A stretch of 64,000 nucleotides of DNA, from NCBI GenBank assembly GCA_015063645.1, contig SVTS01000004.1:1155-65154 (forward strand), given 5' to 3'. Both the position numbers and the translations under genes were made by a program. Position 1 is the first letter of the stretch; each line of letters begins with the position of its first letter. Below, one piece after another: positions 25,157 to 59,613 of the stretch. The DNA is from Oscillospiraceae bacterium (lineage in GTDB: Bacteria; Bacillota; Clostridia; Oscillospirales; CAG-272). The notes below the pieces were generated by a model. It made no database searches and was not told where the DNA came from. It worked only from the letters and a program-made list of their open reading frames with translations.

Positions 25157-26650
25157 TTACTTTTTGCCGAAGCCTTCGTTGAGGGTATCCATCTTCTGAT
25201 TTACCTTGGGTGCGATGGAGGCGAGTGCGGAGGTCAGGTCATAGTTCTTCTCCACGAGCATGAAGCGGAGCTTACCGTCGCGGATCTCGGAGCAGAAAAT
25301 CGTGTCGCCGAAGTCAAATACGCGGTTGTTATAGATAATATCCAGCATGTCGGCGGATTCGCTGTCGCGGGTATCGCGTCCCTCCAGGGACAGATCAAAA
25401 TACACGGGACGGACGGAACGGTAATACTCAGAGGAAAGTGCTTCCAGTACTGCGCCGGTCATCGCCTGACGGTTGTTCACCTGAGGAATCACAAACAACT
25501 CAGGATACTCACTGCGCGCACGGTAGTTTTCCTGATCCTCATTCAGCTTAGGATAGGGCAGGATGCCGAAGTCAACTTCCATCTCACGGTAGCTGCTTAC
25601 ATTGCCGCCGGTGGAGTCACAATACATACCCAGTCCTGTTTTGAACATATCATACTCTGCCTGCTCCTGCGCATCGGTGGTAGATGCAACGGTAGGATGC
25701 CAGTTGTTGTTGTCCCACATCATATCCATGATGGCGGTAAACATGTTGTAGAAGTTCTCATTTCCTTCCATATTATTGTACAGGAAGTTATTTTCATCCT
25801 TCTTCAGCATATACTGATCCATACCGAGCAGGAAAGAGGGCATAATCTGCTTGGAAGGTGTAACATATGCATAACGGTCAACTTCCGTCATCTTGGAGTC
25901 GCCGTTCAGATCTGCGCTGACGTCCGTGATCGTGGATTTGAACAGATCCAGCGTCCATTTTCCATCCCGGACCACTTCGTAAACGGATTTACCGCCCAAA
26001 CGCTTCTCCTCAACACCCAGATCATCATACAGCTTCTTATTGAAGAGGAGCATATGGATGGAATCGTATGTAGTCAGGTTATAGGCGCCGAGGGCAAAAT
26101 ATTTTTCCTTGCCCAGGGTAACTTCGTTTGAGAATTCCTCATCCCACCAGAGTGCGCTCAGATCCACGTTGGGAATATCGGTAAGCTTCTGTGCCAGACC
26201 TTCGGCAGCGTAGTTGAACATATTCACGTGACGTCCGTTGAAAATATCGTAGGTAGCGTCGCCGCTGAGAAGCAGATTCCGGGGCGCATCGTTATCGGTA
26301 TAGTCCACCAGACCGTAATAATCCTCTTTGAAGGATACTTTCAGTCGTTCCTCTACTTTGATTTTCGCGTCAAAGCGGGCATCGTTCAGCGTCTCGCCGT
26401 TGGCTTCCGCGATGAACATCTCGCCGTGATAAAAATATTTCAGTCGGGTATATGCACGGAAGGTCGCGCCCTTGTAGTCCAGATCGGCGGGAAGTTTATC
26501 ATTCGGGATTGCCGGCTCGGTGGTTTCGGTGACAACGGCAGTGGTATCTGCCGCAGCTGTTGTATCCTCTGCAGGAGGAGTCGGATCGGATGCGCAGGCG
26601 GGCAGCGCCAGCATCAGCAGCGCAAGAAGCAGGGATAATGTCTTCTTCAT
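25157..26650 (-). CDS. extracellular solute-binding lipoprotein, large SBP family (divergent paralog)
   Basis: Start at MKKTLSLLLALLMLALPACASD (lipobox LPAC), RBS AGGAAAGGAA; overall SBP architecture as for the other six. Confidence 0.85.
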   Translation of the reverse strand: MKKTLSLLLALLMLALPACASDPTPPAEDTTAAADTTAVVTETTEPAIPNDKLPADLDYKGATFRAYTRLKYFYHGEMFIAEANGETLNDARFDAKIKVEERLKVSFKEDYYGLVDYTDNDAPRNLLLSGDATYDIFNGRHVNMFNYAAEGLAQKLTDIPNVDLSALWWDEEFSNEVTLGKEKYFALGAYNLTTYDSIHMLLFNKKLYDDLGVEEKRLGGKSVYEVVRDGKWTLDLFKSTITDVSADLNGDSKMTEVDRYAYVTPSKQIMPSFLLGMDQYMLKKDENNFLYNNMEGNENFYNMFTAIMDMMWDNNNWHPTVASTTDAQEQAEYDMFKTGLGMYCDSTGGNVSSYREMEVDFGILPYPKLNEDQENYRARSEYPELFVIPQVNNRQAMTGAVLEALSSEYYRSVRPVYFDLSLEGRDTRDSESADMLDIIYNNRVFDFGDTIFCSEIRDGKLRFMLVEKNYDLTSALASIAPKVNQKMDTLNEGFGKK

Positions 26651-40837: not shown

Positions 40838-41848
40838 TTATCTCCGCCTGCCGCGGAGAACAATATGGGCATTGTGATAAAAATCCGTGTGTTCCGCACA
40901 GCGCAGTGCCGCGGCAATTCCGTCAGCAAACGCAATCTCCGGATTCTCTCCGGTACACGCCGCGTGAACGGCGACAGCATGCAGAAGCGCGTACACGCCG
41001 TACAGACCGTCCCACGCCTCCGTCGGCGGGATTCCGTCCCCCGCATAGGGAAACTGGACGAAGTACATGTGGTTCGCCAGAATATTTTCCAGATACCGCT
41101 CCATTCCGGGCAGCCGCTCCTTCGCGCGGCTCTCCGCATCCGCGGGTGCCTCCCATGCCGTGATCCTCTCCGCAAGTGCATGCAGGCTGCCGCTGTGCAG
41201 TCCCAACTCCCTGAGCAGCAAAAGACCGTGTGCGTACAGTTCTGCCGCATCCGCCCGGTACGGCTCGCCGATACAGGCACCGATCCGGCTGAGGCGCTCT
41301 GTATGCGGCACGCCGGCTTCCTGCCAGATCTCCATACAGCGGCGGCGGCGGGATCGCTGTTCCTCGTCCATCCCTGCATCAGGCGGCGCTGCGGATACTT
41401 CCAGCGTCTCCGTGACAAAGCGGAGCGGCCCGTCCGTCTCCATGAGCATCTCAATCACCCGCTCGCAGGCACCGGAGCACACCGCTTCGGTGACATCCCC
41501 CGGTTTAACGGATCGGGGGAAAAGGCGGCACACCGCCGGCTGCACCGATTCGCCGCATTCTTTATGCAGGCGGCACCAGCCTTCGCTGTCCATAACCCGG
41601 CACTTTCCGCCCTCCGTGGCGGTGATAAAAGCGTACCGCGCCTCCGTGGGCGTATCAAAAACGGTAAACGATTCATTCAGTATTCCGCGCAGTTCTCCGC
41701 TGCACTGCAGCTGCATCAGGCGGGTGTATTCGCCCTCGCTGAGTGTGATCCGCCAGCCCTGACAGCAGACGGTACGGCAGTCGCCGCATTTGCAGCGGAA
41801 TTTCCGGAAATATTCCGGGGCTTCCACATTGACTTTTTCCGTAACCAT
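40838..41848 (-). CDS. FliB/YkgJ-type cysteine-cluster protein (flagellin lysine-N-methylase family-like)
   Basis: N-terminal FRCKCGDCRTVCCQGW CxxCxxCC-type cluster, second Cys block GWCRLHKECGE..CRLFPR; 336 aa. Confidence 0.7.
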   Translation of the reverse strand: MVTEKVNVEAPEYFRKFRCKCGDCRTVCCQGWRITLSEGEYTRLMQLQCSGELRGILNESFTVFDTPTEARYAFITATEGGKCRVMDSEGWCRLHKECGESVQPAVCRLFPRSVKPGDVTEAVCSGACERVIEMLMETDGPLRFVTETLEVSAAPPDAGMDEEQRSRRRRCMEIWQEAGVPHTERLSRIGACIGEPYRADAAELYAHGLLLLRELGLHSGSLHALAERITAWEAPADAESRAKERLPGMERYLENILANHMYFVQFPYAGDGIPPTEAWDGLYGVYALLHAVAVHAACTGENPEIAFADGIAAALRCAEHTDFYHNAHIVLRGRRR

Positions 41849-42023: not shown

Positions 42024-42860
42024 TTATTTACGCTTCTTGGAAACCACAACGCCGCCGAGGGATGCTGCTGCAACAACAGCGATGACAGCGAATGCATCAA
42101 AGGTTGCGGGAGCGGTGGTGGAAGAAGCGGGCTTCTGGGTCTGTGCCGCGGGCTTGGTAGTCTCTGCAGGCTTGGTAGCAGCTGCTTCAACCTTTACTTC
42201 CTTATCGGAAAGGGTAACATAGTCATACTTCTTTGTCTCATTTGTGCCGGGGTTGTTCTTGTGAACGGGACCAACGGAGTTGCGGGTACCCCCACCGGTG
42301 ATATCATCAATAACGATATTGATACCGAGGTTAACGCCGGCCTTGGGTGCGACAAGAGCAGCCTCTGCGAGGTCGTATACAACTTCAACAATGTAACCGG
42401 TCTTTGTCATAGTGCAGGCTGACTGTGCGTTTTTCGCGCTTGCCGCATAACGGAAATCCAGACGGTTATCCTGTGCACTGACCATGACCTTGTAGGCGTT
42501 CTTGGTGCTGCCGTTGTTCAGAAGGTCAACGATGTATTCGATGGCTTCGTTCTCATAGATGTTCTTGGCTGTGTCTACGGGAACGATCTCGGGGTCGGTT
42601 ACTTCAGCTGCCATGTAGAGCTTGTTGTTGCCCCAGAGAAGGTAAGCAACACCGGAAGCTTTGGGCGTGCCGGAGGTGGTCTTATTAAGTTTTACAGCCA
42701 GACCCTGAGAGTAGATCTCGTCGATTTTGCCGTCGAGCTTGATCTCGCCCTTATAAAGCGGGATATCGCCCCATTTGTTGCCGTCTGCGTTTGCGAATAC
42801 CGTTACTGCAAGAGATGCGATCATAAGCAGTACGAGTACCAGAGAGGTGAGCTTTTTCAT
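42024..42860 (-). CDS. secreted CBM9/DOMON-like carbohydrate-binding protein with C-terminal PATFDA-TM-KKRK anchor
   Basis: Signal peptide MKKLTSLVLVLLMIASLAVTVFA; IKLDGKIDEIY.. and LLWGNNKLYMAAEVTD blocks typical of CBM9-like domains; T/P/A/K linker, APATFDA, 17-aa hydrophobic helix, SKKRK end. Confidence 0.7.
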   Translation of the reverse strand: MKKLTSLVLVLLMIASLAVTVFANADGNKWGDIPLYKGEIKLDGKIDEIYSQGLAVKLNKTTSGTPKASGVAYLLWGNNKLYMAAEVTDPEIVPVDTAKNIYENEAIEYIVDLLNNGSTKNAYKVMVSAQDNRLDFRYAASAKNAQSACTMTKTGYIVEVVYDLAEAALVAPKAGVNLGINIVIDDITGGGTRNSVGPVHKNNPGTNETKKYDYVTLSDKEVKVEAAATKPAETTKPAAQTQKPASSTTAPATFDAFAVIAVVAAASLGGVVVSKKRK

Positions 42861-42966: not shown

Positions 42967-44448
42967 TTACTGACCCTTGAACGCCTTGACAAACTCTTCC
43001 AGCAGATTCTGTGCAGCGGGAAGTGTGGAAGCGATTTTGGACATGTAACTGTCATCGTTGTTGACGATCAGCTTGCGGTGAACATGACCGATACGGTTCA
43101 GCGCGTAGTTGTACGCATAGATGAAGTCAGAGGTCATCGTTTCGCGGATCAGGTCGATCATCTGCGTGGAAAGGCTGTCGCGGGCATACTTCAGCATCAA
43201 CTCGGATTCATAGTATGCGGGAGTAACGTAGTAGTAGGACTGTGCGGAAAGTGCTTCCAGAACCGCGCCGGTCATCTCGATATTATCGGAGGAAACGGGA
43301 ACGCAGCTCAGCTGTGCGGTTGCGGCAACCTGGGTCTTGTAGTTCTCCTGCGTATCGGAGGTCTTGGGGAAGGGCAGGAAGCCAAAGTCGTCTTCCATAT
43401 CGCGCAGACCTGCGGCGGTGGACAGCATACCGGTCACAAAGAGGGCGTTGCCCGCCTTGAAGACGTCGGTTCTCGAATGCTCAGCATCGACATGGGAGCC
43501 GGGACCGTGGAAGATCGCGTTCAGACGGTTGATGATTTCGTAGGAATCCTCGCTTCCGACGGTCAGCTCAACGAAGCCGTCATCGGTACGCTTGGTATGG
43601 GAAACGTGACCGCCGTAAACCCACGGATCGGAGGTGGAGTTGAGGGAGGAGGCATAGTAGCCCAGCTGGTCGGTATAATCCACAGCACCGTTACCGTTCA
43701 GATCCTTATAGGAGCCCTGTACCAGCTGCTTGAAGTAATCCAGCGTCCAGTTTCCGTCCAGAACCTTCTGATACAGATCATCGGGATTGCCATAGAGATC
43801 CTGATAAAGATTCTTATTGAAGAAATTGGAGTGGGTATACGCAAATACATGGGTATTATAGTCGCTGACCAGCAGGAAGCGGTGCGTCTTGCCCAGTGCC
43901 ATGTCATCCATGTACTTGTTGAACCACCACGGCTTGTCGAAGTTGACGTACTTCAGATCATAGCCGTTGACGAATACCTTCTGGGGAACCAGATACGGCA
44001 CTGAAACGTCCATGCCGAGGAACAGATCGTAGGTGTTGTCATCCGCCATGATCAGAGCGGAAATCTTCAGGTGGTTGTCACTGTAGGAATCGTCGAAGCC
44101 GTTGCATTCAATCTTGATCTTCAGACGCTCTTCCACAGCGAGGTTGCGTGCCCATACGGTTTCGTTGAGAAGGTCACCCTTCAGCTCCTCGGAGCCCATA
44201 ACGAACTTGGTACCGTTGGATTTTGTGGAAGCATACACGCGCCAGGTCTTGTTCTTGTAGTTCAGATCGGCGGGCAGATCGTCCTTGACTTTCAGACGCT
44301 CGTTTTCCTCTTCCGTTTCGGCTGCCGTGGTAGTCTCTCCCGAAACAGCGGTGGTATCCGCAGAAGGAGTACCGGAATCGTCCGAACAGGCGGCCATTGC
44401 AGGCACAAGCATCAGAAGCGCGAGCAGTACAGATATGATTTTCTTCAT
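42967..44448 (-). CDS. extracellular solute-binding lipoprotein, large SBP family, paralog group A
   Basis: Start MKKIISVLLALLMLVPAMAACSDD (lipobox MAAC); C-terminus ..LPAAQNLLEEFVKAFKGQ as in 120..1613. Confidence 0.85.
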   Translation of the reverse strand: MKKIISVLLALLMLVPAMAACSDDSGTPSADTTAVSGETTTAAETEEENERLKVKDDLPADLNYKNKTWRVYASTKSNGTKFVMGSEELKGDLLNETVWARNLAVEERLKIKIECNGFDDSYSDNHLKISALIMADDNTYDLFLGMDVSVPYLVPQKVFVNGYDLKYVNFDKPWWFNKYMDDMALGKTHRFLLVSDYNTHVFAYTHSNFFNKNLYQDLYGNPDDLYQKVLDGNWTLDYFKQLVQGSYKDLNGNGAVDYTDQLGYYASSLNSTSDPWVYGGHVSHTKRTDDGFVELTVGSEDSYEIINRLNAIFHGPGSHVDAEHSRTDVFKAGNALFVTGMLSTAAGLRDMEDDFGFLPFPKTSDTQENYKTQVAATAQLSCVPVSSDNIEMTGAVLEALSAQSYYYVTPAYYESELMLKYARDSLSTQMIDLIRETMTSDFIYAYNYALNRIGHVHRKLIVNNDDSYMSKIASTLPAAQNLLEEFVKAFKGQ

Positions 44449-44549
44449 AGCGTAATCCTTTCCATTCGTTCCCATAGAATATTTTTCTGGATAATCCGGA
44501 ATTCTGTACTCCGGGTAAAAAAATTATAGCATAAATTCCGCCCGCATAG

Positions 44550-44614: not shown

Positions 44615-45457
44615 GTGAAGAAAAATAATCCGATCAAATCCCATATCCCGTTCTGGTCGATGGAAGTTCCAACCGTCTGTTTTACACCGGCGCACACGGA
44701 CACAGGCTATGCGATCAGCACAGAGCACGCGCACCAGCACTATGAGATGAACTTCTGCTACTCACATGCATCTATCCGCCACACCGTGAGCGGCAAGATT
44801 ATCGACACGACCACGCCGTTTTTCTCCTTCCGCGCACCGCTGGTACTCCACTCCGTACGGACGCTGGATGACAGACCGTACACACGTTCCAACGTATACT
44901 TTCATCCGGGAATGCTGAAGAAATACGAAAACATCTGCTCCCTCGGCAAGCTGAGCAACGTGCGCGCATGCACCATTCCCACTGATGAGAAGCAGATGGA
45001 ATATCTGGATAAGCTGATCGGGCATATGGGACGCCTGTGGGAAGAAGATGCTCCGGAGAATGTCTGTGTAAGCCTGCTGGCTGCTCTTCTGTATGAAGTC
45101 AATGCCCTTGTCCCGGAGGATCTGCCTCCGCAGACGGAGACACCGCCGTACATACAGGAGGTCATGCTGTACATCGTGGGACATATCGAGGATAATCTGA
45201 CGCTGGACAGTCTGTCGAGGCAGTTTTTCATCAGCAAAAGCAAGCTGGCACAGGATTTCCACTCCGTGACGGGACAGAGTGTGCACGATTACACCACCGC
45301 AATCCGCATGTGGCGTGCAAAAAGCATGCTCACGGAGGGCATGCCGCTGTCCATCATCGCCGACGCCTGCGGATTCTCCCGGGATTCCGCGCTGATCACC
45401 ATGTTCCGCCGCGAGTCGGGCATGACGCCCACCGAGTGGCTGAAATCCGTGCAGTAA
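44615..45457 (+). CDS. AraC family transcriptional regulator (paralog of 26783..27637)
   Basis: GTG start; IPFWSMEV.. sensor domain, C-terminal ..IADACGFSRDSALITMFRRESGMTPTEW HTH; divergent from SBP gene. Confidence 0.85.
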   Translation: MKKNNPIKSHIPFWSMEVPTVCFTPAHTDTGYAISTEHAHQHYEMNFCYSHASIRHTVSGKIIDTTTPFFSFRAPLVLHSVRTLDDRPYTRSNVYFHPGMLKKYENICSLGKLSNVRACTIPTDEKQMEYLDKLIGHMGRLWEEDAPENVCVSLLAALLYEVNALVPEDLPPQTETPPYIQEVMLYIVGHIEDNLTLDSLSRQFFISKSKLAQDFHSVTGQSVHDYTTAIRMWRAKSMLTEGMPLSIIADACGFSRDSALITMFRRESGMTPTEWLKSVQ

Positions 45458-45517
45458 AATATGGATACGTCACCCAAAAACAGCTGCACCGAACGCAGAA
45501 AAATTCCCCCATCCCCC

Positions 45518-45546
45518 TTGCGCAAAAGCGCACTTTATGATACAAT
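45518..45546 (+). promoter_or_regulatory. sigma-A promoter of large GH-like gene
   Basis: TTGCGC-17 nt-(TGa)TACAAT. Confidence 0.55.
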
Positions 45547-45578
45547 GATGATACATCAATCTGCAAGGAGATTTTACC

Positions 45579-48503
45579 ATGAACGATAAGACTCTTTCCG
45601 CGATTCAGCAAACCGCGAAATCCTACGGCTCCGTGCCTTTCTGGAGCTGGAACGATGATCTGGAGCCGGAGGAACTCCGTCGGCAGATCCGCGCCATGGA
45701 CAAAATCGGCATGAACGGCTTCTTCATGCATGCCCGCGGCGGTCTGGAGACCGAATATCTCTCCGACAGATGGTTCGAATGCATCAATGCCTGCGTGGAC
45801 GAAGCAAAGAAGCTGGGCATGGATGCCTGGAGCTATGACGAAAACGGCTGGCCCTCCGGATTCGCCGGCGGTCTGCTTCTGAAGGACGAGGACAATTTTG
45901 CCCGCTATCTGACCCACGCCGAAGAGGATACCTATCCCACCGACAGCGCGGTTCTGGGCGTATATAAAATCGAGGACGGCAAGTGCCGCAAGGCGACTGC
46001 CGCCGACAGCGCACCGTTCTGCGTTGTCCGCGAGGGTGCGGATTCCTCCTATGTGGACGTACTCCGTCAGGATGTCATCGCCAAATTTATCGAAGTTACC
46101 CACGAGGAATACAAGCGCCGTGTCGGCGAGGATTTCGGCGGCGTGATGCCCGGATTCTTCACCGATGAACCCCAGTATTACCGTTACGCCTCCCCGTGGT
46201 CGAAAAAGCTGCCCGAGGAATTCATGGCTCGCTTCGGCTACTCCATCGAAGAGATCTATCCCGCCGTGTTCTGGGATTTCGAGGGATGCGAAGCGTATCG
46301 CTACGATTATTATCTGCTGCTGCATGAATTGTTCATGAAGAATTTCGCCAAGCAGATCTACGACTGGTGTGAGGAAAACGGCTGCCAGCAGACCGGTCAC
46401 GCCATCGACGAGGGTTCCCTTGGCGGACAGGTCATGTGCTGCGGCGGCGTTATGCCTTTCTATCAGTACGAGCACGTTCCGGGCGTAGACTATCTGGGAC
46501 GCGATATCCAGACGGATCTGCTGGGCAAGCAGCTTGGTTCCGCCTGCGCACAGCTTGGACGCAAAAAGGCACTTTCTGAAACCTTTGCCTGCGCCGGCTG
46601 GGATGTCAGCCCCCGTGAACTCAAGCGCATCGCCGAGATGCAGTACGCCGGCGGCGTCAATCTGATGTGCCAGCATCTGTATCCGTACTCCGAGCGCGGT
46701 CAGCGCAAGCGCGATTATCCCCTGCACTACTCCGAGCACAGCCCGTGGTATGACAAGATGGTGGATTTCGACCGTCACTTCACCAATCTGGGTGCACTGC
46801 TCGGTGCCGGCGAGGAATATTCCACCACGCTGGTGATCCATCCTGTCCGTGCGGCATACCGCGTATACAAGCGCCACCTGGGTCACGGCTCCTGCGGTCA
46901 GCTGGATGCGGATCTCCGGGTACTGATGAAACAGCTGGGCGACGCACAGGTTCCCTATCACTTTGGTGACGAGGGCATGATGGAGACGATGGCATCCGTG
47001 GAGGGTGCAAAGATCCGCGTGGGTCTGTGTTCCTATGACTACATCATCGTTCCCAAAATGGAGACGCTGACGGCGAACACCGTAAAGCTTCTGCGTGAAT
47101 TCGCCGCAAATGGCGGCAAGATCTGGTTCGCGGGCGATGTTCCCGGCGAGATCGACGCAAGAGCTGCCGATCTGTCCGATCTGTCCTCTACCACCTCCTT
47201 TGAGGAGATCGCCGCCGCTTCCGATGTGATCACCACGCTTGACGGCGGGATCGTGCCCGCACTCCGTCAGCGCATCCGCGTAATGGACGGACGGAAGATC
47301 ATCTTCACTGCCAACATTACCGCTGCTGATCACTACGGCGTGCGCATGAACATCAAAAACTGCGCCGGCGCGGCAGGCGTCTCCACCGATACACTGGAAA
47401 AATTCCCGCTGATGGGCGAGAAGAATGCCGACGACTCCCTCACCGTAGCACTGGACTTCCCCGCCTCCCATTCCATCGTGATCATCGAGGACGCGGACGC
47501 GCAGATGCTGCCGATTCCCGCATCCTTCGGCGCAAAGCCCGCCATGGCTCTGCCGGAGATCTGGAAGCTGTCCGCTCCGCTGACCAATGCTCTGACCATT
47601 GACTACGCAGCCATCTCGAAGGACGGCGGCGCAAGCTGGACGGAAGACCGTCCCATCGAGCGGGTGCGCGATGAGCTGCTCCGCGAGCAGTACGAAGGCA
47701 ATCTGCTCCTCCGCTATCCCTTCACGGTAGACGTAATTCCCGCATCCGCGGAGATCGTCTGGGAGAATCCCGGCGTGAAGAGCGTCCGGGTCAACGGTGT
47801 CGAGGTACAGGCGAACGGTTATCTCCATCCCGACAAGGCGTTCAGCCGTGCGGATGTGGCATCCCTCCTGCAGGTTGGCGTGAACGGCATCGTCCTGGAA
47901 TACGACTATTATCAGAAGCCGCTGGTCTATGACGTACTCTTCGGCGACGTTATGGAATCCCTGCGCAACTGTCTGAATTTCGATACGGAGATTGAATGCG
48001 TCTACGTCCGCGGTGATTTCCGCATCGGCATGGATCTAAGCAAGTGCACCGACACCGTCAAATCCGCCATCGAATACACCGGCACATTCCCGATCATCGC
48101 ACCCCGGTGTGAGATCGCCGTGCGGGACATGGTCCGCGACGGACTGCCCTTCTACGGCGGTGCCGTGGAAGCGGAATGCACCGTCGGCTGGAAGCCGGGT
48201 GACGCAACCGTCTTCCGTCCGGATGGCAGATTTGCCGCTGTGGACGTATGGGTGAACGAAGCGTATGCCGGCATGGTCTTCTTCAACAACGAGCTGGATC
48301 TGGCAAAATATCTGCGTGAAGGCGACAACACGCTCCGCATCCGCATCGTCAATGCGCTCCGCAACACCGCCGGCCCGCATCACCGCGCCGACGTGGAGCC
48401 CTTCAGCGTAGGTCCGGTCACGTTCTCCTTTGAGAAGCAGTGGAAAGACGGTCAGTGCGCCGCTTATCTCACCCGTTATGCATTTGTGAAATACGGAATT
48501 TAA
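45579..48503 (+). CDS. large intracellular glycoside-hydrolase-like protein (N-terminus resembles the PFWSWND.. GH106/GH2-like family)
   Basis: 974 aa; SVPFWSWNDDLEPEELRRQIRAMDKIGMNGFFMHARGGLETEYLS..YDENGWPSGFAGG; RBS AAGGAGA; family call tentative. Confidence 0.7.
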   Translation: MNDKTLSAIQQTAKSYGSVPFWSWNDDLEPEELRRQIRAMDKIGMNGFFMHARGGLETEYLSDRWFECINACVDEAKKLGMDAWSYDENGWPSGFAGGLLLKDEDNFARYLTHAEEDTYPTDSAVLGVYKIEDGKCRKATAADSAPFCVVREGADSSYVDVLRQDVIAKFIEVTHEEYKRRVGEDFGGVMPGFFTDEPQYYRYASPWSKKLPEEFMARFGYSIEEIYPAVFWDFEGCEAYRYDYYLLLHELFMKNFAKQIYDWCEENGCQQTGHAIDEGSLGGQVMCCGGVMPFYQYEHVPGVDYLGRDIQTDLLGKQLGSACAQLGRKKALSETFACAGWDVSPRELKRIAEMQYAGGVNLMCQHLYPYSERGQRKRDYPLHYSEHSPWYDKMVDFDRHFTNLGALLGAGEEYSTTLVIHPVRAAYRVYKRHLGHGSCGQLDADLRVLMKQLGDAQVPYHFGDEGMMETMASVEGAKIRVGLCSYDYIIVPKMETLTANTVKLLREFAANGGKIWFAGDVPGEIDARAADLSDLSSTTSFEEIAAASDVITTLDGGIVPALRQRIRVMDGRKIIFTANITAADHYGVRMNIKNCAGAAGVSTDTLEKFPLMGEKNADDSLTVALDFPASHSIVIIEDADAQMLPIPASFGAKPAMALPEIWKLSAPLTNALTIDYAAISKDGGASWTEDRPIERVRDELLREQYEGNLLLRYPFTVDVIPASAEIVWENPGVKSVRVNGVEVQANGYLHPDKAFSRADVASLLQVGVNGIVLEYDYYQKPLVYDVLFGDVMESLRNCLNFDTEIECVYVRGDFRIGMDLSKCTDTVKSAIEYTGTFPIIAPRCEIAVRDMVRDGLPFYGGAVEAECTVGWKPGDATVFRPDGRFAAVDVWVNEAYAGMVFFNNELDLAKYLREGDNTLRIRIVNALRNTAGPHHRADVEPFSVGPVTFSFEKQWKDGQCAAYLTRYAFVKYGI

Positions 48504-51475: not shown

Positions 51476-51686
51476 ACAGGCATTGATCGGTGAGAATCCG
51501 GCATCCGCTCCCCCAGAGAGCCGCTGTCATGGGCTGCAAGCAGCGGTGGAGTCAGCCGGGCTGTGCCTCCGTGAGCCTGCCGTGCGATACTGTAGCGCGG
51601 CACGTTTCCCGCGTTAAGGGACAGAGTACAAACGAGAGTGGAACCGCGATCCGTCGCCTCTTGGGACGGTTCGCGGTCTTTTTTAT
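51476..51686 (+). promoter_or_regulatory. T-box riboswitch leader (candidate Cys specifier UGC) with terminator
   Basis: AGAGA box, candidate specifier GGGC-UGC-A, T-box sequence GAGAGUGGAACCGCG, terminator GAACCGCGATCCGTC...GACGGTTCGCGGTC + TTTTTT directly upstream of cysE. Confidence 0.75.
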
Positions 51687-51705
51687 TGAATTGAGGTACA
51701 AAAGT

Positions 51706-52671
51706 ATGAAGCATTACCGCATTCATGTGGAATTCCGCATGCCCGGTCTGCGTCGCCTCGGAGAGGACACCATCGGCACGGTTGTGCAGGCAGTGGACGC
51801 ATTCCGCGGCATCAAGCACATCGGCGACGGGGTGAAGCTCCACACCCGGGTTATGAAGCCCGATCCGGAGCCGGAAGAAGAGGAAAACGTCCTCAGGGAC
51901 GAGCCTCTGAGCGAGGATGCCTTTGAGGAAACGGGCGAATACTCCTCTCCGGCGGACGCATTTTTCAGCGAAGCTGAGGAGAAAGCCAAGCGGCTGTGGG
52001 ATTCCGTTCTCCGTACTGCCGAGGAGATCAAAGAGGACATCGACATCATCTGCGAGCGTGACCCTGCCGCCCGTTCCCGGGCAGAGGTACTGATGCTGTA
52101 CTCCGGTCTGCACGCTCTGCTGATCTACCGTGCGGCGCACGCGCTGCATGAAAAAGGATTCTGCTTCACCGCCCGTGCGATGAGCCAGATCGGACGGCTG
52201 CTGACGGGCATTGAGATCCATCCCGGCGCGCAGATCGGCCGCGGATTATTCATCGACCACGGAAGCGGCGTTGTCATCGGCGAAACCGCCATCATCGGCG
52301 ACTACTGCACGCTGTATCAGGGTGTGACCCTGGGCGGCACGGGCAAGGACACCGGCAAGCGTCACCCCACGCTGGGTGATCATGTGATGGTCGGTGCCGG
52401 CGCGAAGCTGCTGGGCAATTTCACCGTGGGATCCGGCTCCAAGATCGCCGCAGGCGCGGTGGTACTGGGTGAAGTACCGGAGAACAGCACGGCAGTGGGC
52501 ATTCCCGCGAGAGTGGTACGCCGTGCCGGTCAGAAGGTGGATGATCTGGACCAGACCCACATTCCCGACCCGGTATCCCAGGCACTGTGCCGGATCGGCG
52601 TACGGCTTGAGGAGATGCAGGCAAAGATTGACGCTCTGGAAAAAGCGGGCACGGAGGCGGATGCACAATGA
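51706..52671 (+). CDS. cysE: serine O-acetyltransferase with ~100 aa N-terminal extension
   Basis: Core IKEDIDIICERDPAARS..GIEIHPGAQIGRGLFIDHGSGVVIGETA..GKRHPTLGD hexapeptide repeats; RBS GAGGT 8 nt before ATG 51706, just after the T-box terminator. Confidence 0.85.
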   Translation: MKHYRIHVEFRMPGLRRLGEDTIGTVVQAVDAFRGIKHIGDGVKLHTRVMKPDPEPEEEENVLRDEPLSEDAFEETGEYSSPADAFFSEAEEKAKRLWDSVLRTAEEIKEDIDIICERDPAARSRAEVLMLYSGLHALLIYRAAHALHEKGFCFTARAMSQIGRLLTGIEIHPGAQIGRGLFIDHGSGVVIGETAIIGDYCTLYQGVTLGGTGKDTGKRHPTLGDHVMVGAGAKLLGNFTVGSGSKIAAGAVVLGEVPENSTAVGIPARVVRRAGQKVDDLDQTHIPDPVSQALCRIGVRLEEMQAKIDALEKAGTEADAQ

Positions 52672-53615
52672 AATGTCCCAACTGTCAAAGAGATAATTAC
52701 CCGGGCGCGAAATTCTGTCTCGGATGCGGCACTCCCCTGCCCCAGCCGCCGTCCCGCGGCAAGCTGGCGCTGATCGCGCTGCTGAAAGCAGCGGCGTATT
52801 ATGGTTTATTTTTCGTTGTCCAGACGTCGGTGATGTTCATTTATGAGATTGCGCTTCTGATGCCGGAGGCATTCCGTCTCGGACTGAGCGGCGGTGCGAT
52901 AGACGGTGATCTGATGGAGCGGCTGACAGAGACGCTGATGGATGCGCTCTCCAAGAACATCCACATTCTGCTGATTCTCAGCGGAGCGCTGACGCTGCTT
53001 ATTCTGTTTTTCTTCTATCATCTGCGCCGGAAAAATCCTCTGGACGAGATGCATCTCACGGGGACTTCGCTGCCGCCGCTGGCGATGGCGCTTATTCTGG
53101 GCATTGCGGCGCAGTTCTTTGTGAGCATCACGCTGACATTTCTGCCGATCCCGGAATCGATGATTGAGAGTTTCAACGAAAACCGGAGCACGGAGCTGAT
53201 TTACGGCGGCGGTCCTTTATGGCTGGAGCTGATCAGCATTGCGGTGGTTACGCCGATTCTGGAAGAAGTGATTTTCCGCGGGCTGATTTTCACGCGGCTT
53301 CGCCGTGCGATGTCCGTCTCTCTTGCGGTAGGCATATGCGCCGTGATTTTCGGTGCGGTACACGGGCACATCATTGCGTTTATTTACGCAGGGCTTCTGG
53401 GCATTCTGCTCTGTCTGCTGATGCTCCGTGTGAACGATTCGGTTCTCGCGCCGATCTTCTGTCACATGGGCTTTAACTTCGGCTCATATCTGGTCAACTG
53501 GACCTTCGGCGACACCCTCAACATGCCGCTGATGCTGGCGTTCTACTTCGTTTCCATCGCCCTCTGTCTGATCTGCGGATATCTGATTTTCCGGCGGACG
53601 GCTGAGGAGGAGTGA
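52668..53615 (+). CDS. zinc-ribbon + CPBP (CAAX/Abi) family intramembrane metalloprotease
   Basis: N-terminal CPNC..x..CLGCG zinc ribbon; multiple TM helices; LEEVIFRG and FGAVH CPBP motifs; ATGA overlap with cysE stop. Confidence 0.8.
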   Translation: MKCPNCQRDNYPGAKFCLGCGTPLPQPPSRGKLALIALLKAAAYYGLFFVVQTSVMFIYEIALLMPEAFRLGLSGGAIDGDLMERLTETLMDALSKNIHILLILSGALTLLILFFFYHLRRKNPLDEMHLTGTSLPPLAMALILGIAAQFFVSITLTFLPIPESMIESFNENRSTELIYGGGPLWLELISIAVVTPILEEVIFRGLIFTRLRRAMSVSLAVGICAVIFGAVHGHIIAFIYAGLLGILLCLLMLRVNDSVLAPIFCHMGFNFGSYLVNWTFGDTLNMPLMLAFYFVSIALCLICGYLIFRRTAEEE

Positions 53616-53797: not shown

Positions 53798-53866
53798 GGA
53801 AGCGCAGTCCGAACACCGCTGAAGCGGTAATTACCGCTAATCTTTATTGGATTCACCGAAGGATAT

Positions 53867-54037
53867 CGGGAGCTGTACCCCCAAACCAACTCCATTTGAT
53901 CCGCGGGCGGCAGCACCGGCTGTCCCCCCGACCAACTTCACTTGATTCGCCGGGGGTGTCGGGGGCTGTGCCCCCGACCGCAACCTGACTTCTCGGGGGG
54001 TCAAGGGGGGCAGAGCCCCCCTTGCCATGCGCTGCAC
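53867..54037. repeat. family A palindromic repeat: two degenerate half-units plus one full unit in tandem
   Basis: Three ~45-nt units sharing GCTGTNCCCCC(G)ACCNAAC..ACTT..CG, the last continuing into GGGGGGTCAAGGGGGGCAGAGCCCCCCTTGCCATGCGCTGCAC. Confidence 0.7.
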
Positions 54038-54089
54038 AAAAATTACAGCTATCAAAAATAAAACAATAATACAAAGGAACAACGACACT

Positions 54090-55520
54090 ATGAAACTCTA
54101 CAATTCTCTCTCCCACGAAAAAGAGGAATTCATTCCCCACGAGCCGGGCAAGGTGAGCATGTACACCTGCGGTCCGACCGTGTATCATTTCGCGCACATC
54201 GGCAATCTGCGTTCCTATATCATGGAGGATGCGCTGGAGAAATATCTCCGCTACGACGGTTACGACGTAAAGCGCGTTATGAACATCACCGACGTAGGTC
54301 ATCTGACCAGCGACGCGGACACCGGCGAGGACAAGATGCTCAAGGGTGCGAAGCGCGAGAAGAAAACCGTCATGGAGATCGCGAAATTCTACACCGACGC
54401 GTTCTTCGCTGACTGTGAAAAGCTGAACATCAAGAAGCCCGACGTGATTGAGCCGGCAACCGGCTGCATTCCGGAGTTCATTCAGATGGTACAGGGACTG
54501 CTGGAAAAGGGCTACGCCTACATTTCCGGCGGCAACGTGTATTTTGACACCTCCAAGCTGGAAAAGTATTACGTCTTCAACAATTTTGAGGCGGAAGATC
54601 TGGAAGTCGGCGTCCGTGAGGGCGTTGAGGAGGACACCAGCAAGAAGAACAAGGCGGACTTTGTTCTGTGGTTCACCAAGTCCAAGTTTGAGGATCAGGA
54701 ACTGAAGTGGGACAGCCCCTGGGGCATCGGTTATCCCGGCTGGCATATTGAGTGCTCCGCCATCAGCCTGAAGCACAACGGCGAGTATCTGGATCTGCAC
54801 TGCGGCGGCATCGACAATGCGTTCCCGCATCACACGAACGAAATTGCTCAGTCCGAGGCGTATCTGGGACATCCGTGGTGCAAATACTGGTTCCACATTC
54901 TGCATCTGAACACAAACAGCGGCAAGATGAGCAAATCCAAGGGCGAATTCCTGACGGTTTCCCTGCTGGAGGAGAAGGGCTACGATCCGATCGTATACCG
55001 TTTCTTCTGTCTGCAGTCCCATTACCGCCGCTCGCTGGTCTTCTCCTGGGAGGGGCTGGACAATGCCGCAACGGCGTATGACAAGCTGATCGCGAAGATC
55101 GCCGCGCTGGATCCGGCGAAGAAGGAGCCGGCAAACGCGGATGCGGAAGCCGCTGTACGCGCATCCTTCAAGGAAGCGCTGGACAACGATCTGAACACAT
55201 CTCTGGCGGTAACGGCGGTATACGATGTGCTGAAGGCACCGATCTCCGACGCGGCAAAGAGACAGATTCTGGGTGAGTTCGACGCGGTGCTGTCGCTGAA
55301 TCTGCTGAAGGCGGCAGACGCGAAGCGCGCGGAGGCAGAGACGGATGCGCCTGCCGGCGACAGCGAGCTGATCGCGAAGATCGAGGCGATGATCGCCGAG
55401 CGTGCGGCTGCGAAGAAGGCGAAGAATTACGCCCGTGCGGACGAGATCCGCGCTGAGCTGAGCGCGATGGGCGTGACGCTGAAGGACACGCCGAACGGCA
55501 CGGAGTTTACGATTGCGTAA
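54090..55520 (+). CDS. cysS: cysteine--tRNA ligase
   Basis: MYTCGPTVYHFAHIGNLR (HIGH), KMSKSKG (KMSKS); start at MKLYNSL 54090. Confidence 0.95.
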   Translation: MKLYNSLSHEKEEFIPHEPGKVSMYTCGPTVYHFAHIGNLRSYIMEDALEKYLRYDGYDVKRVMNITDVGHLTSDADTGEDKMLKGAKREKKTVMEIAKFYTDAFFADCEKLNIKKPDVIEPATGCIPEFIQMVQGLLEKGYAYISGGNVYFDTSKLEKYYVFNNFEAEDLEVGVREGVEEDTSKKNKADFVLWFTKSKFEDQELKWDSPWGIGYPGWHIECSAISLKHNGEYLDLHCGGIDNAFPHHTNEIAQSEAYLGHPWCKYWFHILHLNTNSGKMSKSKGEFLTVSLLEEKGYDPIVYRFFCLQSHYRRSLVFSWEGLDNAATAYDKLIAKIAALDPAKKEPANADAEAAVRASFKEALDNDLNTSLAVTAVYDVLKAPISDAAKRQILGEFDAVLSLNLLKAADAKRAEAETDAPAGDSELIAKIEAMIAERAAAKKAKNYARADEIRAELSAMGVTLKDTPNGTEFTIA

Positions 55521-55575
55521 AGGGGAAACGCTGGGGGATTTTTGAAAAAATCCCCCAGCCCCCAAAAACTTTTAT
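55521..55575. repeat. family B palindromic repeat
   Basis: GCTGGGGGATTTTTGAAAAAATCCCCCAGC followed by CCCCAAAAACTTTTAT (compare 25084..25106). Confidence 0.65.
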
Positions 55576-55577
55576 AT

Positions 55578-55626
55578 AAAAAAGTACAGCTGAACGTGTA
55601 CGAAAAAGTTCAGCTGTACTTTTTTA
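55578..55626. terminator. bidirectional terminator between cysS and SBP gene
   Basis: AAAAAGTACAGCTGAAC-12 nt-GTTCAGCTGTACTTTTTT. Confidence 0.8.
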
Positions 55627-55628
55627 TT

Positions 55629-55677
55629 AAGTTTGGGAAAGGGGTCTGGGGGAACCCTTTTCAAAGGGTTCCCCCAG
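55629..55677. repeat. family B palindromic repeat
   Basis: AAGTTTGGGAAAGGGGTCTGGGGGAACCCTTTTCAAAGGGTTCCCCCAG (compare 48593..48647). Confidence 0.65.
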
Positions 55678-55685
55678 CGTATCTC

Positions 55686-57170
55686 TTATTCGCCCTTGAA
55701 GGTCTTGATCAGTTCAGCCAGTTTCTGCTCAGCGGCAGGCAGCTTGGACTGTACGGTGGAAACGTAGTCAGAGGAGTTATTGGTGATCAGGGTACGGAAC
55801 ACGTGAGCGATGCTGTTGAGAGAGGAGTTATAAGCAAAGATGAAGTTGGTGGACATGGAATCCTTGATCATATCGATCATCTGGGAAGAAATGTCGTCAC
55901 GGGCATACTTCAGCTTCAGTGCGGATTCATACCATGCGGGAGTTACGCGGCGGTAGGATTCAGCGGCGAGAGCTTCCAGCATTGCGCCGGTAAATGCCAG
56001 ATCCTTGGAGGTGATGGAAACACCGGTCAGATGGTTGGTGTCATGTACAACGGAGTGGTATGCTGTCTGCTCGTCATAGATCTTCGGGTTGGGCAGATAA
56101 CCGTAGTCATCCTCCATGTCACGCATACCGGTAGCGTTATTCAGGAGACCGTTGCCCATGAACAGGGATCTTCCCTCGGTGAAAATCTGAACTTCCTTAC
56201 CGCCGGACTTGGTATTGACTGCCTGCTGGTGGAAGAATACGTTCAGCTTATCCAGCAGCTTGATGGCTTCGTCGTTGATCATGTTCAACTGAATAAAGCC
56301 GTCCTTATCACGGGTAGTGAGCGGAACCTCGGAACCGTAAACAAAGCCGTCGGTAGTAGAGAGAAGCTGATTAGTGATGAAGCCAAGCTGGTCAGTGGTA
56401 TCCACCACGCCGTTGCCGTCCAGATCGGAGTACGCGCCGGAAACGAGGGTGTTCAGCTTATCCAGCGTCCACTTGCCGTCCAGAGCGTCCTTGTACAGTT
56501 CGTTGGGATCGCCGTAGAGCTTTTCATAGAGAACCTTATTGAAGAAAAGTGCACGGATATATGCGATGGTCTGGGTATTATAATCGCTGGCGAGCAGGAA
56601 ACGGTAGTCCTTGCCGAGGGAGATCTCATCCATGAAGTTGTTCATCCACCACGGCTGATCGAAATTCACGTGGGGAAGTTCAAAGCCGTTGACGAACATC
56701 TTCTGGGAAACGAGGGAGGTCATACCGTACTGAGAGCCGACGTAGATATCATATGTTGCATCTCCTGCCAGAATCAGCGTGGAAACTGCGGCGGGGATTT
56801 CCTTATAGTTCTTATTTTCGGTAACCATATTCAGCTTGACGCCAAAACGGTCCTCAACATTTGCATTTCTTTCCCAAACAGCTTCGACAACAACGTCACC
56901 GGCTTTTTCTTCCTTACCGGCATAAAAGTCATCAAAAACAGCCTGGGTACCGATATAGATGCCGAAAGTCTTGCCGTCGAATTTCAGATCGGCAGGGAGA
57001 TCGTCCTTGATCTCATGGCGCTCGGTCTCCGGGGGTTCGGTTTCAACGGGAGCGGTGGATTCTGTGGAAGCGGTGGTATCGGCAGGCTTGCCGGAATCGG
57101 AGCAGGCTGCCATTGCGGGAATCAGCATCAGGGATGCCAGAATCGCTGCAAGAATACGCTTGGTTGCCAT
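55686..57170 (-). CDS. extracellular solute-binding lipoprotein, large SBP family, paralog group A
   Basis: Start MATKRILAAILASLMLIPAMAACSDSG (RBS AAGGAGAG); near-identical architecture and C-terminus to 120..1613. Confidence 0.85.
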   Translation of the reverse strand: MATKRILAAILASLMLIPAMAACSDSGKPADTTASTESTAPVETEPPETERHEIKDDLPADLKFDGKTFGIYIGTQAVFDDFYAGKEEKAGDVVVEAVWERNANVEDRFGVKLNMVTENKNYKEIPAAVSTLILAGDATYDIYVGSQYGMTSLVSQKMFVNGFELPHVNFDQPWWMNNFMDEISLGKDYRFLLASDYNTQTIAYIRALFFNKVLYEKLYGDPNELYKDALDGKWTLDKLNTLVSGAYSDLDGNGVVDTTDQLGFITNQLLSTTDGFVYGSEVPLTTRDKDGFIQLNMINDEAIKLLDKLNVFFHQQAVNTKSGGKEVQIFTEGRSLFMGNGLLNNATGMRDMEDDYGYLPNPKIYDEQTAYHSVVHDTNHLTGVSITSKDLAFTGAMLEALAAESYRRVTPAWYESALKLKYARDDISSQMIDMIKDSMSTNFIFAYNSSLNSIAHVFRTLITNNSSDYVSTVQSKLPAAEQKLAELIKTFKGE

Positions 57171-57269
57171 GGTATTACTCTCCTTAATTATAATATTTGA
57201 TGTCAATATTAATAATACCACACATCGGCAGATTTGTCAAGCCCAATTGGTTTTTTGGATGGCATAAAG

Positions 57270-57315: not shown

Positions 57316-57978
57316 TTATCTCTTCTTCTTCAGAACAACGGTACCTGCGAGAGATACAGCTGCGACGGCGGCAACGATGATGCCTGCGTCAAAGGTAGCG
57401 GGAGCCGCAGGAGTTGCAGCGGGCTTGGTGGTTGCAGCGGGAGCCTTGGTGGTCTCCTCAGCCGGCTTAGGTACGTAGATGCGGAGAGCAGCCTTATCGC
57501 CTTCCGTTACGGCACGGGTAGGAGTAACAGACAGGTTGAAAGCGCGAACTGCGAAAGTACCCCACCATTCCTTGGTAACTTCAACAACATTGGTGTTTAC
57601 GTTGCCGGGACGGGCGACGTCATCCTTGGAGAGATCGGCATTAACCCATCCCTCGGGACGGTACTGATAGCCTGCGTCAACGATGATGATGGAGCCAACG
57701 GGCAGTTCCTTCTGGGTGAAGGTCTTGGATGCGATGTAGTTGGGCAGATTGGAAGCGTCGCTGTTTGCCTTGCTGATTACAACATTGCCATATGTGGTAT
57801 CGCTGGAGTTGTAATAAGCGTTCATCTCGCCGAACCAATCGAGAGCAACATAGTCGGAAGACTTCTTGCCGAGGGACTCGATGAGTTTGGCATCGGCGGA
57901 CGGAACAGCAGCGATAGAGGGAGCCATCATGGCAACTACCATGAGAGCGCAGAGGAGAAATGCAGCGAACTTTTTCAT
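57316..57978 (-). CDS. secreted protein of unknown function with C-terminal PATFDA-TM-KKKR anchor
   Basis: Signal peptide MKKFAAFLLCALMVVAMMAPSIAA; T/P/A/K linker, APATFDA, hydrophobic helix GIIVAAVAAVSLAGTVV, LKKKR end. Confidence 0.7.
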   Translation of the reverse strand: MKKFAAFLLCALMVVAMMAPSIAAVPSADAKLIESLGKKSSDYVALDWFGEMNAYYNSSDTTYGNVVISKANSDASNLPNYIASKTFTQKELPVGSIIIVDAGYQYRPEGWVNADLSKDDVARPGNVNTNVVEVTKEWWGTFAVRAFNLSVTPTRAVTEGDKAALRIYVPKPAEETTKAPAATTKPAATPAAPATFDAGIIVAAVAAVSLAGTVVLKKKR

Positions 57979-58125: not shown

Positions 58126-59613
58126 TCAGCCTTGGTTTCCGGCCTGGATCGTCGCGATCAGATCGGCGATTGCATTTGCGGCGACTGTCCGCTTGGATGC
58201 ATCGTGGGTCACAAGGGTGTTCTTTCCCTGATTAACCACTTTGTAGATCTGCGTCAGATAGCTGCCCCAGTTGTACACGGAGCCGATATCCATCACCAGC
58301 GTATTGTGGATAATTTCCAGCATATCCACGGATTGCACATCGCGCGCGAGCTTGGATTCCAGATACGCCTCGTAGAATACGGGCAAGACGTTATAGTAGG
58401 ATTCGTATGCCATTGCCTCCAGCACAAAAGAGACATCATCGACATTCTTTACGCTGATCGGCACGGCGAACATGGGAACATTAAAACAGGAAGCGGTATG
58501 GATATAGTTCTCCTGCTCGGCATTCGCCTTCGGTATGGGCAGAATACCGTAGTTGATCTCATACTCGCGGCAACCGTCCTCCAGCATGGAAATCTGCACC
58601 AGGAGCTGATCGTTCTGCATCATGCGGTTGGATTCCGTCCAGATGTGATCCACGTTCTTGATGTTGCGGATACAGAGGTAATTGGTGGTGTCGGCAAAGA
58701 TGTTGTTCACCAGCTTATCCCAGAGGTTAATGGCCTCCTCGGTAGCGGCGGTAATGTAGGGAATATCGTTTTCATCCTTGTCAGCGATCAGGTAGCCCGC
58801 CCCTACGGCCAGACAGTAGCCGGAGTAGTCATCGGCGCTGTGACCCCAGCGGTCGTTGTTGTCGCGGACGCCGTCACCGTTCAGATCGGCGGCACCGACC
58901 CTAATCAGCTTGATGAACTCGTCCAGCGTCCAGGTGCCGTCATACGCCATCTGATAGTAATTGTTGATATCCAGACCGTTGTCCTTCATCAAATCAATAT
59001 TGACGATCGGATGATAAAGCCACTGCCGGGAGGTGAGGCTGAATGCATTGGCGGACATGAACAGCTTGTTCATCAGTGTAAGAGAGTCGTTCAGCTGATG
59101 AAACCACCACGGCTGATCAAAATCCTGATACTTCAGGGTATTCATATCGTAAAGCAGATTGCCTGAAACGTAATAAATCAGGCTGTTGCGTGGGCCGTCG
59201 ATCAGCACCTGATAGGAGTCGTCACCCGCCTGCACGTTCTGCAGGATATCCTTGGTGGGCGTGGCCTGGTTGGTGGGAGAGATCTGAAGTATTTCAAAAT
59301 TATACTTCTCGTTCAGCGCCAGATTACGCGCATAGACCGCATCGTTGACGCTTTCGCCGTTCTCCTCCTCAGCATATACACCCTTTTCGGTCTTGCCGTA
59401 GAAGGTGAACACCTGCCCCTCCAGATCCATCGCCTTGGGCAGACCGGAGGGAATTTTGGTCTCCTCCGGCTCGGTGACTGCGGGAGCGGTGGATTCCGTA
59501 CTTTTGTCGGAGGTTTCCGGCGTATCGTCCGCATCCGGCGCCGAGCATGCGGTCAGTGCGGAGCCAAGCATCACGGATACCAGAAGCACTGCGGTAATTT
59601 TTCTGATATTCAT
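58126..59613 (-). CDS. extracellular solute-binding lipoprotein, large SBP family, paralog group B
   Basis: MNIRKITAVLLVSVMLGSALTACSAPD lipobox; shares ..PEETKIPSGLPKAMDLEGQ.. and C-terminal ..Q(A/K)GN(Q/E)G with the next two genes. Confidence 0.85.
   Translation of the reverse strand: MNIRKITAVLLVSVMLGSALTACSAPDADDTPETSDKSTESTAPAVTEPEETKIPSGLPKAMDLEGQVFTFYGKTEKGVYAEEENGESVNDAVYARNLALNEKYNFEILQISPTNQATPTKDILQNVQAGDDSYQVLIDGPRNSLIYYVSGNLLYDMNTLKYQDFDQPWWFHQLNDSLTLMNKLFMSANAFSLTSRQWLYHPIVNIDLMKDNGLDINNYYQMAYDGTWTLDEFIKLIRVGAADLNGDGVRDNNDRWGHSADDYSGYCLAVGAGYLIADKDENDIPYITAATEEAINLWDKLVNNIFADTTNYLCIRNIKNVDHIWTESNRMMQNDQLLVQISMLEDGCREYEINYGILPIPKANAEQENYIHTASCFNVPMFAVPISVKNVDDVSFVLEAMAYESYYNVLPVFYEAYLESKLARDVQSVDMLEIIHNTLVMDIGSVYNWGSYLTQIYKVVNQGKNTLVTHDASKRTVAANAIADLIATIQAGNQG

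Follow-up and report, generated by a model that had tools for sequence, protein, structure and literature searches.

A conserved C-terminal A-P-x-T-F-D tail on secreted carbohydrate-binding proteins of uncultured gut and rumen Clostridia as a candidate sortase-type sorting signal

C-terminal sorting signals tell annotators which proteins reach the cell surface, and among the described systems those read by sortases come closest to the one considered here. Substrates of the LPXTG/sortase A type combine a signal peptide with a C-terminal end made of motif, hydrophobic helix and basic residues, carry Pro at P4 and Thr at P1, and occur, as is the case with housekeeping sortases, as many unlinked substrates per genome. 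The Ruminococcus NPXTG signal, found in gut and rumen Clostridia, is likewise tripartite, with an x-P-x-T-x-D register that is followed by an Ala/Val/Ile-rich helix and KKR. Class B signals, such as NPQTN-D in IsdC of Staphylococcus aureus and NPKTG-D in Bacillus anthracis, are read by sortases that are normally encoded beside their one or few substrates, and IsdC, held by a short tether, lies embedded in the wall, from where it hands its ligand, heme, to the lipoprotein IsdE, a substrate-binding protein (SBP). In these class B signals the P1' residue varies and the acidic P2' residue (Asp) contributes to recognition, as illustrated by sortase B of B. anthracis, which requires the P2' Asp of DNPKTGDE for full activity (PMC11987632). 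Here we analyse a window of 64,000 nucleotides, which is the whole stretch of DNA under study (contig SVTS01000004.1 of the Oscillospiraceae bacterium assembly GCA_015063645.1), in which two secreted proteins, a CBM9 protein of 278 amino acids (aa; gene 1) and a protein of 220 aa (gene 2), end in a common tail that carries the motif APATFDA in place of LPXTG. The tail is best read as a signal in which Phe occupies P1' and P2' holds a class-B-like Asp, and which displays proteins composed of carbohydrate-binding modules (CBMs) only. With moderate confidence we regard it as a lineage-specific variant of the cell-wall sorting signal of the sortase type in Gram-positive bacteria, A-P-x-T-F-D standing for L/N-P-x-T-G(-D).

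Both open reading frames (ORFs) are located on the minus strand, and according to the ORF lists and the sequence they and their tails are exactly as a preliminary description of this DNA had given them. Gene 1 (42024..42860) encodes a signal peptide (aa 1-25, MKKLTSLVLVLLMIASLAVTVFANA; 42786..42860) recognised from sequence and hydropathy and with a predicted cleavage site, a CBM9 domain (PF06452, CBM9_1; aa 42-218, 64.4 bits against a cut-off of 23.4 in the Pfam scan), a linker rich in Thr, Pro, Ala and Lys (aa 219-249; 42114..42206), the signature motif APATFDA (aa 250-256; 42093..42113), and a hydrophobic helix of about 18 residues (aa 256-273) with the basic cluster SKKRK (aa 274-278; together 42027..42095), the stop codon lying at 42024-42026. 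A protein identical to the product of gene 1 is present on metagenome contigs of both JGI and ENA, and the window makes up nearly the whole of a JGI metagenome contig of 65.7 kb. Gene 2 (57316..57978) similarly encodes a signal peptide (aa 1-24), a folded domain at about aa 30-171 (57466-57891) that has no Pfam match, a linker (aa 172-191), the motif APATFDA (aa 192-198; 57385..57405), and a helix of 19 residues (aa 198-216) with the basic cluster KKKR (aa 217-220; together 57319..57387), followed by the stop codon at 57316-57318. The mature domain of gene 2 was modelled confidently by AlphaFold2 as mostly beta, with a core pLDDT above 90, and a fold search with it returned no PDB match at E<0.001 and only weak hints of CBM/lectin jelly-rolls. 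Most of its homologues form the C-terminal part of larger proteins, end in ...RIYVPKK and lack the tail; PF16227 is annotated on some of them. Each of the two proteins possesses exactly two hydrophobic segments, one at either end, and a six-frame scan of the window found the layout of motif, helix, basic cluster and stop in genes 1 and 2 only. As had been claimed, no similarity between the mature domains is detectable, and the two proteins align in their tails only. At the DNA level the tails share 66% identity over 90 nt, and their codons differ by 8 synonymous and 12 non-synonymous changes, so that a recent duplication is excluded; the 8 synonymous differences in particular show that the motif has been kept by selection rather than freshly copied.

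While the preliminary description knew the tail from these two proteins and had named a restriction to them as a sign of a recent domain copy, the tail extends far beyond the window. A full HMMER scan of 1.84 billion cluster representatives (50% identity level) with a tail profile of 36 columns recovered 156 representatives at E<=0.001, including 8 at E<=1e-10, and in about 147 of the best 150 profile matches the match site was the exact C-terminus. An earlier alignment of 42 columns, which included the linker and was used in a word-indexed homology search, had been swamped by low-complexity candidates and gave a single match. The resulting consensus is A-P-[QAK]-T-F-D-[AFM]-[GA]-[IV][IV]AAVAA[IV]VSAAGYA[IV]SKK[RH], and the distance between the Ala and the stop is fixed at 28-29 residues. 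Within the family the Pro and the Thr of the motif are invariant (100% each), the Asp is conserved in 99%, the Phe in 92% and the preceding Ala in 89%, and in the middle of the helix a Gly and a Ser are kept in 94% and 80%, respectively. When a degenerate DNA pattern of the tail was run against a collection of species-representative genomes, at least 119 blocks were found; among the matches listed, 117 of the 119 blocks came from at least about 35 species-level metagenome-assembled genomes (MAGs), which contained up to 8-9 tail genes each, and the remaining two were chance matches in a betaproteobacterium and in Amycolatopsis. The tail-positive MAGs originate from the gut of goat, buffalo, cattle, chicken and human hosts and are labelled as uncultured Ruminococcus sp., Oscillospiraceae, Eubacteriales or Clostridia bacterium. 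With the residue after the Thr left free, the DNA pattern matched 92 metagenome stretches, in which Phe occupied this position in 96 of 97 genuine tails. Two further tail genes, which were found by chance (L042:2-625(+) and L110:314-1150(+)), carry PQTMD and PKTLD, so that in tail-positive MAGs the Phe of the motif can also be replaced by Met or Leu. Moreover, with gene 2 as the query, the tail was recovered on unrelated proteins whose domains were CBM9, Laminin_G_3 or unknown. The tail is in this respect what it had been taken for, a conserved tripartite C-terminal domain common to unrelated secreted proteins with N-terminal signal peptides, and as a signal it is well supported. A literature search for the PxTFD motif returned nothing relevant.

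Comparison with existing models places the tail beside the sortase signals, although it lies outside all of their curated limits. No Pfam family, including PF00746, matches the tail at E<=10, and nothing in NCBIfam (release 20, model-specific curated cut-offs) reaches its cut-off, LPXTG_anchor, Rumino_NPXTG, PGF-CTERM and Loki-CTERM all remaining below; that no curated sorting-signal model covers it is a point in favour of the preliminary description. The nearest model for almost every tail tested was, below threshold, Rumino_NPXTG (NF033846), which scored TFD tails at 13.6-20.0 bits when they were presented alone or in short proteins (cut-off 23.5), and at 7-8 bits or not at all in several longer TFD-tail proteins. 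LPXTG_anchor (TIGR01167) gave 13.2 bits (cut-off 15.9) for the gene 1 tail alone and no match for that of gene 2, and the best score of PGF_CTERM (TIGR04126) was 9.8 bits against a cut-off of 24.5. PEP-CTERM and GlyGly-CTERM had no match at E<=10 in NCBIfam, and the PEP and GG motifs are absent from the tail; Firmicu-CTERM also had no match in NCBIfam at E<=10, the presence of this model in the library not having been checked separately.

In the alignments to NF033846 the residue after the Asp falls on profile position 7 both in TFD tails and in the PxTGD tails of P0178 and P0192, and judged by these coordinates the motifs are in register as N/S/A-P-x-T-G/F-D: P, T and D coincide, F stands opposite G, and N and G of the model are unmatched. 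Exchanges at the same place were found among homologues of the window proteins. P0146, a CBM9 protein of 274 aa with 31% full-length identity to gene 1, ends in APATGD followed by a helix and KKR, and P0173, also a CBM9 protein, ends in APQTGD, while the orthologues P0095, P0198 and P0199 (50-57% identity) carry APATAD and P0032, a homologue of gene 2, carries PSTAD. When the mature CBM9 domain served as the query, only 5 close relatives were obtained, among which an exchange of Phe and Ala at P1' was still apparent. The PxTGD variants themselves score 14.0 bits against the LPXTG_anchor cut-off of 15.9 and 19.6-21.7 bits against the NPXTG cut-off of 23.5. The term LPXTG-less of the preliminary description needs to be corrected in so far as it implies an unrelated signal, since by its alignment the tail shares the register of the Ruminococcus NPXTG(D) signal, and full-length homologues of the CBM9 protein have APATGD or APATAD in the corresponding position. 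The tail is best regarded as a sortase-type variant and less well as a class of its own. In line with this, an invariant Pro at P4, Thr at P1 and Asp at P2' around a semi-variable P1' residue form the pattern that would be expected around a scissile Thr-X bond. The tail equals the Ruminococcus NPXTG signal in length and resembles it in register, helix composition and host lineage, but has Phe for Gly at P1' and Ala for Asn at P5, and by the curated criterion (score below 23.5 bits) it is not a member. Compared with LPXTG it lacks the Leu at P5 (Ala in 89%) and the Gly at P1' (Phe in 92%), although it shares with the sortase A substrates the Pro at P4, the Thr at P1, the signal peptide and the many unlinked genes per genome. 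With class B signals it has the variable P1' and the Asp at P2' in common, yet it differs from class B systems in its many substrates per genome, in having Ala rather than Asn at P5 and in the absence of a sortase from about 1.1 Mb of flanking DNA.

If the tail is a variant of the sortase signal, the proteins would be exported by the Sec pathway with removal of the N-terminal signal peptide, and the C-terminal helix with its Lys/Arg cluster would retain them in the membrane so that the motif lies on its outer side. An unlinked transpeptidase of the housekeeping type, most likely a sortase, would then cut after the invariant Thr and join the protein to peptidoglycan; such an enzyme would have to tolerate at P1' a residue as bulky as Phe (in some cases Ala, Leu, Met or Gly) and to read the invariant P2' Asp. 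The short linker, which comprises 20-30 residues in the window proteins, would put the non-catalytic CBM in or on the wall, and glycans could be concentrated there for the orphan SBP lipoproteins, of which these genomes encode many. Several observations weigh against this reading. No TLxTC motif was found in the window, in the genome-contig loci (791 kb) or in the metagenome loci (312 kb, covered by the TLxTC regular expression alone), the two sets of loci amounting to about 1.1 Mb, and phmmer searches that used SrtA and SrtB of S. aureus as queries gave no match in any of the six frames, either of the window or of the genome-contig loci. The claim that the window holds no sortase gene is thereby borne out, as none of its ORFs of at least 120 aa contains an LxTC motif or has a phmmer match, and the annotated contexts of four other tail proteins likewise contain no sortase. 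These results exclude linkage to an operon-type (class B/C-style) sortase and say little about an unlinked housekeeping sortase. In addition, every match of a hidden Markov model (HMM) for a curated sortase signal stays below its cut-off, and to our knowledge a consensus Phe at P1' combined with Ala for Leu/Asn at P5 is undescribed in natural sortase substrates. The helix is unusually conserved (VSAAGY, Gly 94%, Ser 80%), as is more typical of helices in packing contact with a partner or of signals that intramembrane enzymes read, and the linkers of the window proteins (about 20-30 residues) are as short as the tethers of the neighbouring SBP lipoproteins. Since the flanks of about 1.1 Mb contain neither a sortase nor a recurrent candidate enzyme, processing of the tail is something that we infer rather than demonstrate.

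Some of these observations would also fit a tail that is never processed. As a type I membrane anchor, in which helix and Lys/Arg cluster serve as a stop-transfer sequence, the tail would hold the CBM level with the SBP lipoproteins, and its juxtamembrane motif and small-residue helix (AAVAA..SAAG) might pack against a membrane partner, for example a transporter, or self-associate. We regard this as a serious rival, though on balance a less than probable one: it would account for a highly conserved helix rich in small residues, for linkers in the window proteins that are short (about 20-30 residues), much like the N-terminal tethers by which the adjacent SBP lipoproteins are held, and for the lack of a linked processing enzyme in about 1.1 Mb, and it is favoured by the recurrence of a gene for a fused ABC-ATPase/FtsX protein (11 genes in 9 of 119 loci), while leaving unexplained why P, T and D are invariant when the variable residue sits exactly at the would-be scissile P1' position, and why the motif is in register with the NPXTG/LPXTG signals. 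The PxTGD motif on homologous cargo of other organisms also speaks against a mere anchor. Alternatively, the tail could be the signal of a dedicated enzyme other than a sortase, such as a rhomboid, an exosortase/archaeosortase or another membrane protease or transpeptidase, and would then form a new signal-enzyme pair. The PGF-CTERM/archaeosortase A, PEP-CTERM/exosortase, GlyGly-CTERM/rhombosortase, MYXO-CTERM/myxosortase (CPBP) and Firmicu-CTERM/XrtG systems share with the tail the tripartite design and the many targets per presumed enzyme, and the fixed length, the conserved helix and the number of targets per genome recall PEP-CTERM, PGF-CTERM and GlyGly-CTERM in particular, just as the aromatic residue directly before the helix recalls the PGF/PEF motifs; moreover, the searched DNA contained no sortase. 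None of these five signals, however, has a significant HMM match to the tail (PGF_CTERM 9.8 vs 24.5 bits, others no match), the resemblances below threshold all being to sortase-type signals, and the multi-pass membrane ORFs near tail genes include no recurrent protease-like or other membrane enzyme family. In the XrtG system the gene of the Firmicu-CTERM target adjoins XrtG (PMC12854382), whereas the tail genes are without a recurrent multi-pass or exosortase-family neighbour. We consider a dedicated non-sortase enzyme unlikely.

One gene of the window, for a CPBP/Rce1-like intramembrane protease with an N-terminal zinc-ribbon (52668-53615, plus strand), could be thought to process the tail, as it lies between the two tail genes and as several C-terminal sorting signals are processed by CPBP proteases, the myxosortases (10.1101/2023.06.07.544157). 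The gene overlaps, at its start, the stop of a gene for a cysE-like serine O-acetyltransferase (51529-52671) and is itself followed by cysS, so that the translational coupling points to a housekeeping context; its scores are far below the cut-offs of MrtJ, MrtS, MroQ and pepcterm_CAAX, and no homologue occurs in the 119 genome loci (791 kb). The CPBP-processed signals that this preprint describes (MYXO-, JDVT-, Synerg- and CGP-CTERM) each possess an invariant Cys, which the tail motif lacks, and with 14,477 CPBP genes in the 5,846 genomes of its set, or about 2.5 per genome (10.1101/2023.06.07.544157), the presence of one in 64 kb is unremarkable. We consider this gene a generic family member and rejected it as the tail enzyme, its involvement being highly improbable. 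Even less can be said for a recent local copy of a domain, or a chance product of low complexity, as the origin of the resemblance, a reading that we regard as refuted and practically impossible: Ala/Val/Thr/Pro-rich sequence is indeed common at such ends, but the window tails share only 66% DNA identity with 8 synonymous differences, and the tail is found in 156 independent clusters and about 35 MAG species on several unrelated cargo families.

The cargo that the favoured variant of the sortase signal would display consists almost wholly of non-catalytic CBMs. In a Pfam scan of 130 tail proteins, CBM9 was found in 48, F5/8 type C in 15, Laminin_G_3 in 12 and CBM6 in 5, and no catalytic domain of a glycoside hydrolase was recognised among the 130. 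The glycan-capture role that had been proposed for these proteins fits such a cargo, dominated as it is by CBMs. One member of the collection, P0037 (258 aa, ENA contig), joins an N-terminal fragment of an ABC_tran ATPase to the C-terminal end of a surface protein with the tail, and is probably a chimeric assembly or gene call rather than a real architecture.

An association of the tail genes with genes for SBP lipoproteins had also been claimed. Gene 1 has directly upstream, on its own strand, a gene for an SBP-family lipoprotein (42967..44475, minus) with a signal peptide followed by Cys, which is a paralogue of the SBP_bac_1-matching gene at 25157-26650 and a possible partner of gene 1. Gene 2 is flanked by two such genes on its own strand, one directly downstream (55686..57170, minus) and one directly upstream (58126..59613, minus). 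Since no ABC permease-like gene is present anywhere in the window, and no ATPase gene either, the SBPs of the window are orphans, as previously stated. In the 119 genome loci the SBP-type lipoprotein family of about 495 aa that has seven members in the window is the commonest recurrent neighbour of tail genes, with 31 genes in 26 loci. This recurrence upholds one part of the claim, but direct adjacency is not significantly above expectation, as 10 of 133 neighbour slots were occupied by SBP genes compared to 6.65 +/- 2.0 in within-locus shuffles, 164 of 2000 of which reached 10. Cargo and gene neighbourhood together make a relay of glycans to the SBPs plausible, by analogy with SusE/F or with the hand-over from IsdC to IsdE, although a functional tie is not established. 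Like the tail proteins, SusE/F-type proteins of Bacteroidota are surface-tethered, non-catalytic CBMs encoded among glycan-utilisation genes, an analogy of function only, and have a primary binding protein nearby, which is SusD there and would be an SBP lipoprotein here, where the linkage is not statistically established. The two groups are unrelated in sequence and differ in attachment, through an N-terminal lipid in SusE/F as opposed to a C-terminal helix or sortase-type signal in the tail proteins. IsdC may be the functional analogue of the proposed relay within the Gram-positive wall. The most far-reaching version of this model, which we think unlikely, would make APxTFD-CTERM part of a new sorting pair, with either a sortase subfamily for which Phe at P1' is nearly obligate or a non-sortase enzyme, that puts CBM-only proteins into the wall of uncultured Oscillospiraceae-like bacteria from gut and rumen, where they relay glycans to expanded families of orphan SBP lipoproteins; if true, Gram-positive bacteria would possess a counterpart of SusE/F built along the lines of the Isd heme relay.

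Because the tail is invisible to the Pfam and NCBIfam models, several proteins per genome of the abundant but uncultured Clostridia in gut and rumen are annotated as hypothetical, and their cargo, which consists almost purely of CBMs, points to an unrecognised glycan-capture layer at the surface in Gram-positive fibre degraders. An HMM of the tail can be built now from the collected sequences and used for phylogenetic profiling. Should a sortase read the tail, its preference for Thr-Phe-Asp would provide sortase-mediated ligation with a naturally orthogonal tool; should another enzyme do so, the tail would define a new sorting system.

Further features were observed in the window and around other tail genes. 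The window contains seven paralogous SBP lipoproteins of about 495 aa with 27-79% mutual identity (120-1613(+), 25157-26650(-), 42967-44475(-), 55686-57170(-), 58126-59613(-), 59827-61302(-) and 61461-62948(-)), only one of which reaches the Pfam cut-off of SBP_bac_1, which amounts to an unusual density of orphan SBPs for 64 kb. Contigs of other samples that extend the window added nothing new. The gene for the fused ABC-ATPase/FtsX-permease (up to 1059 aa) that recurs near tail genes occurs in loci including L037, L043, L051, L079, L089, L100, L105 and L120, sometimes directly adjacent and on the same strand. Directly downstream of gene 1, whose product has a Lys-rich linker, a gene at 40838-41848(-) encodes a Cys-rich protein of 336 aa that scores 114 bits against the model for FliB (flagellin lysine-N-methylase; cut-off 85), with no flagellar genes nearby, and this FliB-like methylase gene does not recur beside tail genes at the other loci. 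Finally, very long ORFs lie antisense to GH106-like, cysS and SBP genes (45396-47828(-), 53853-55565(-), 55542-57200(+) and others), and these are artefacts of codon bias in a window of 56% GC rather than genes.

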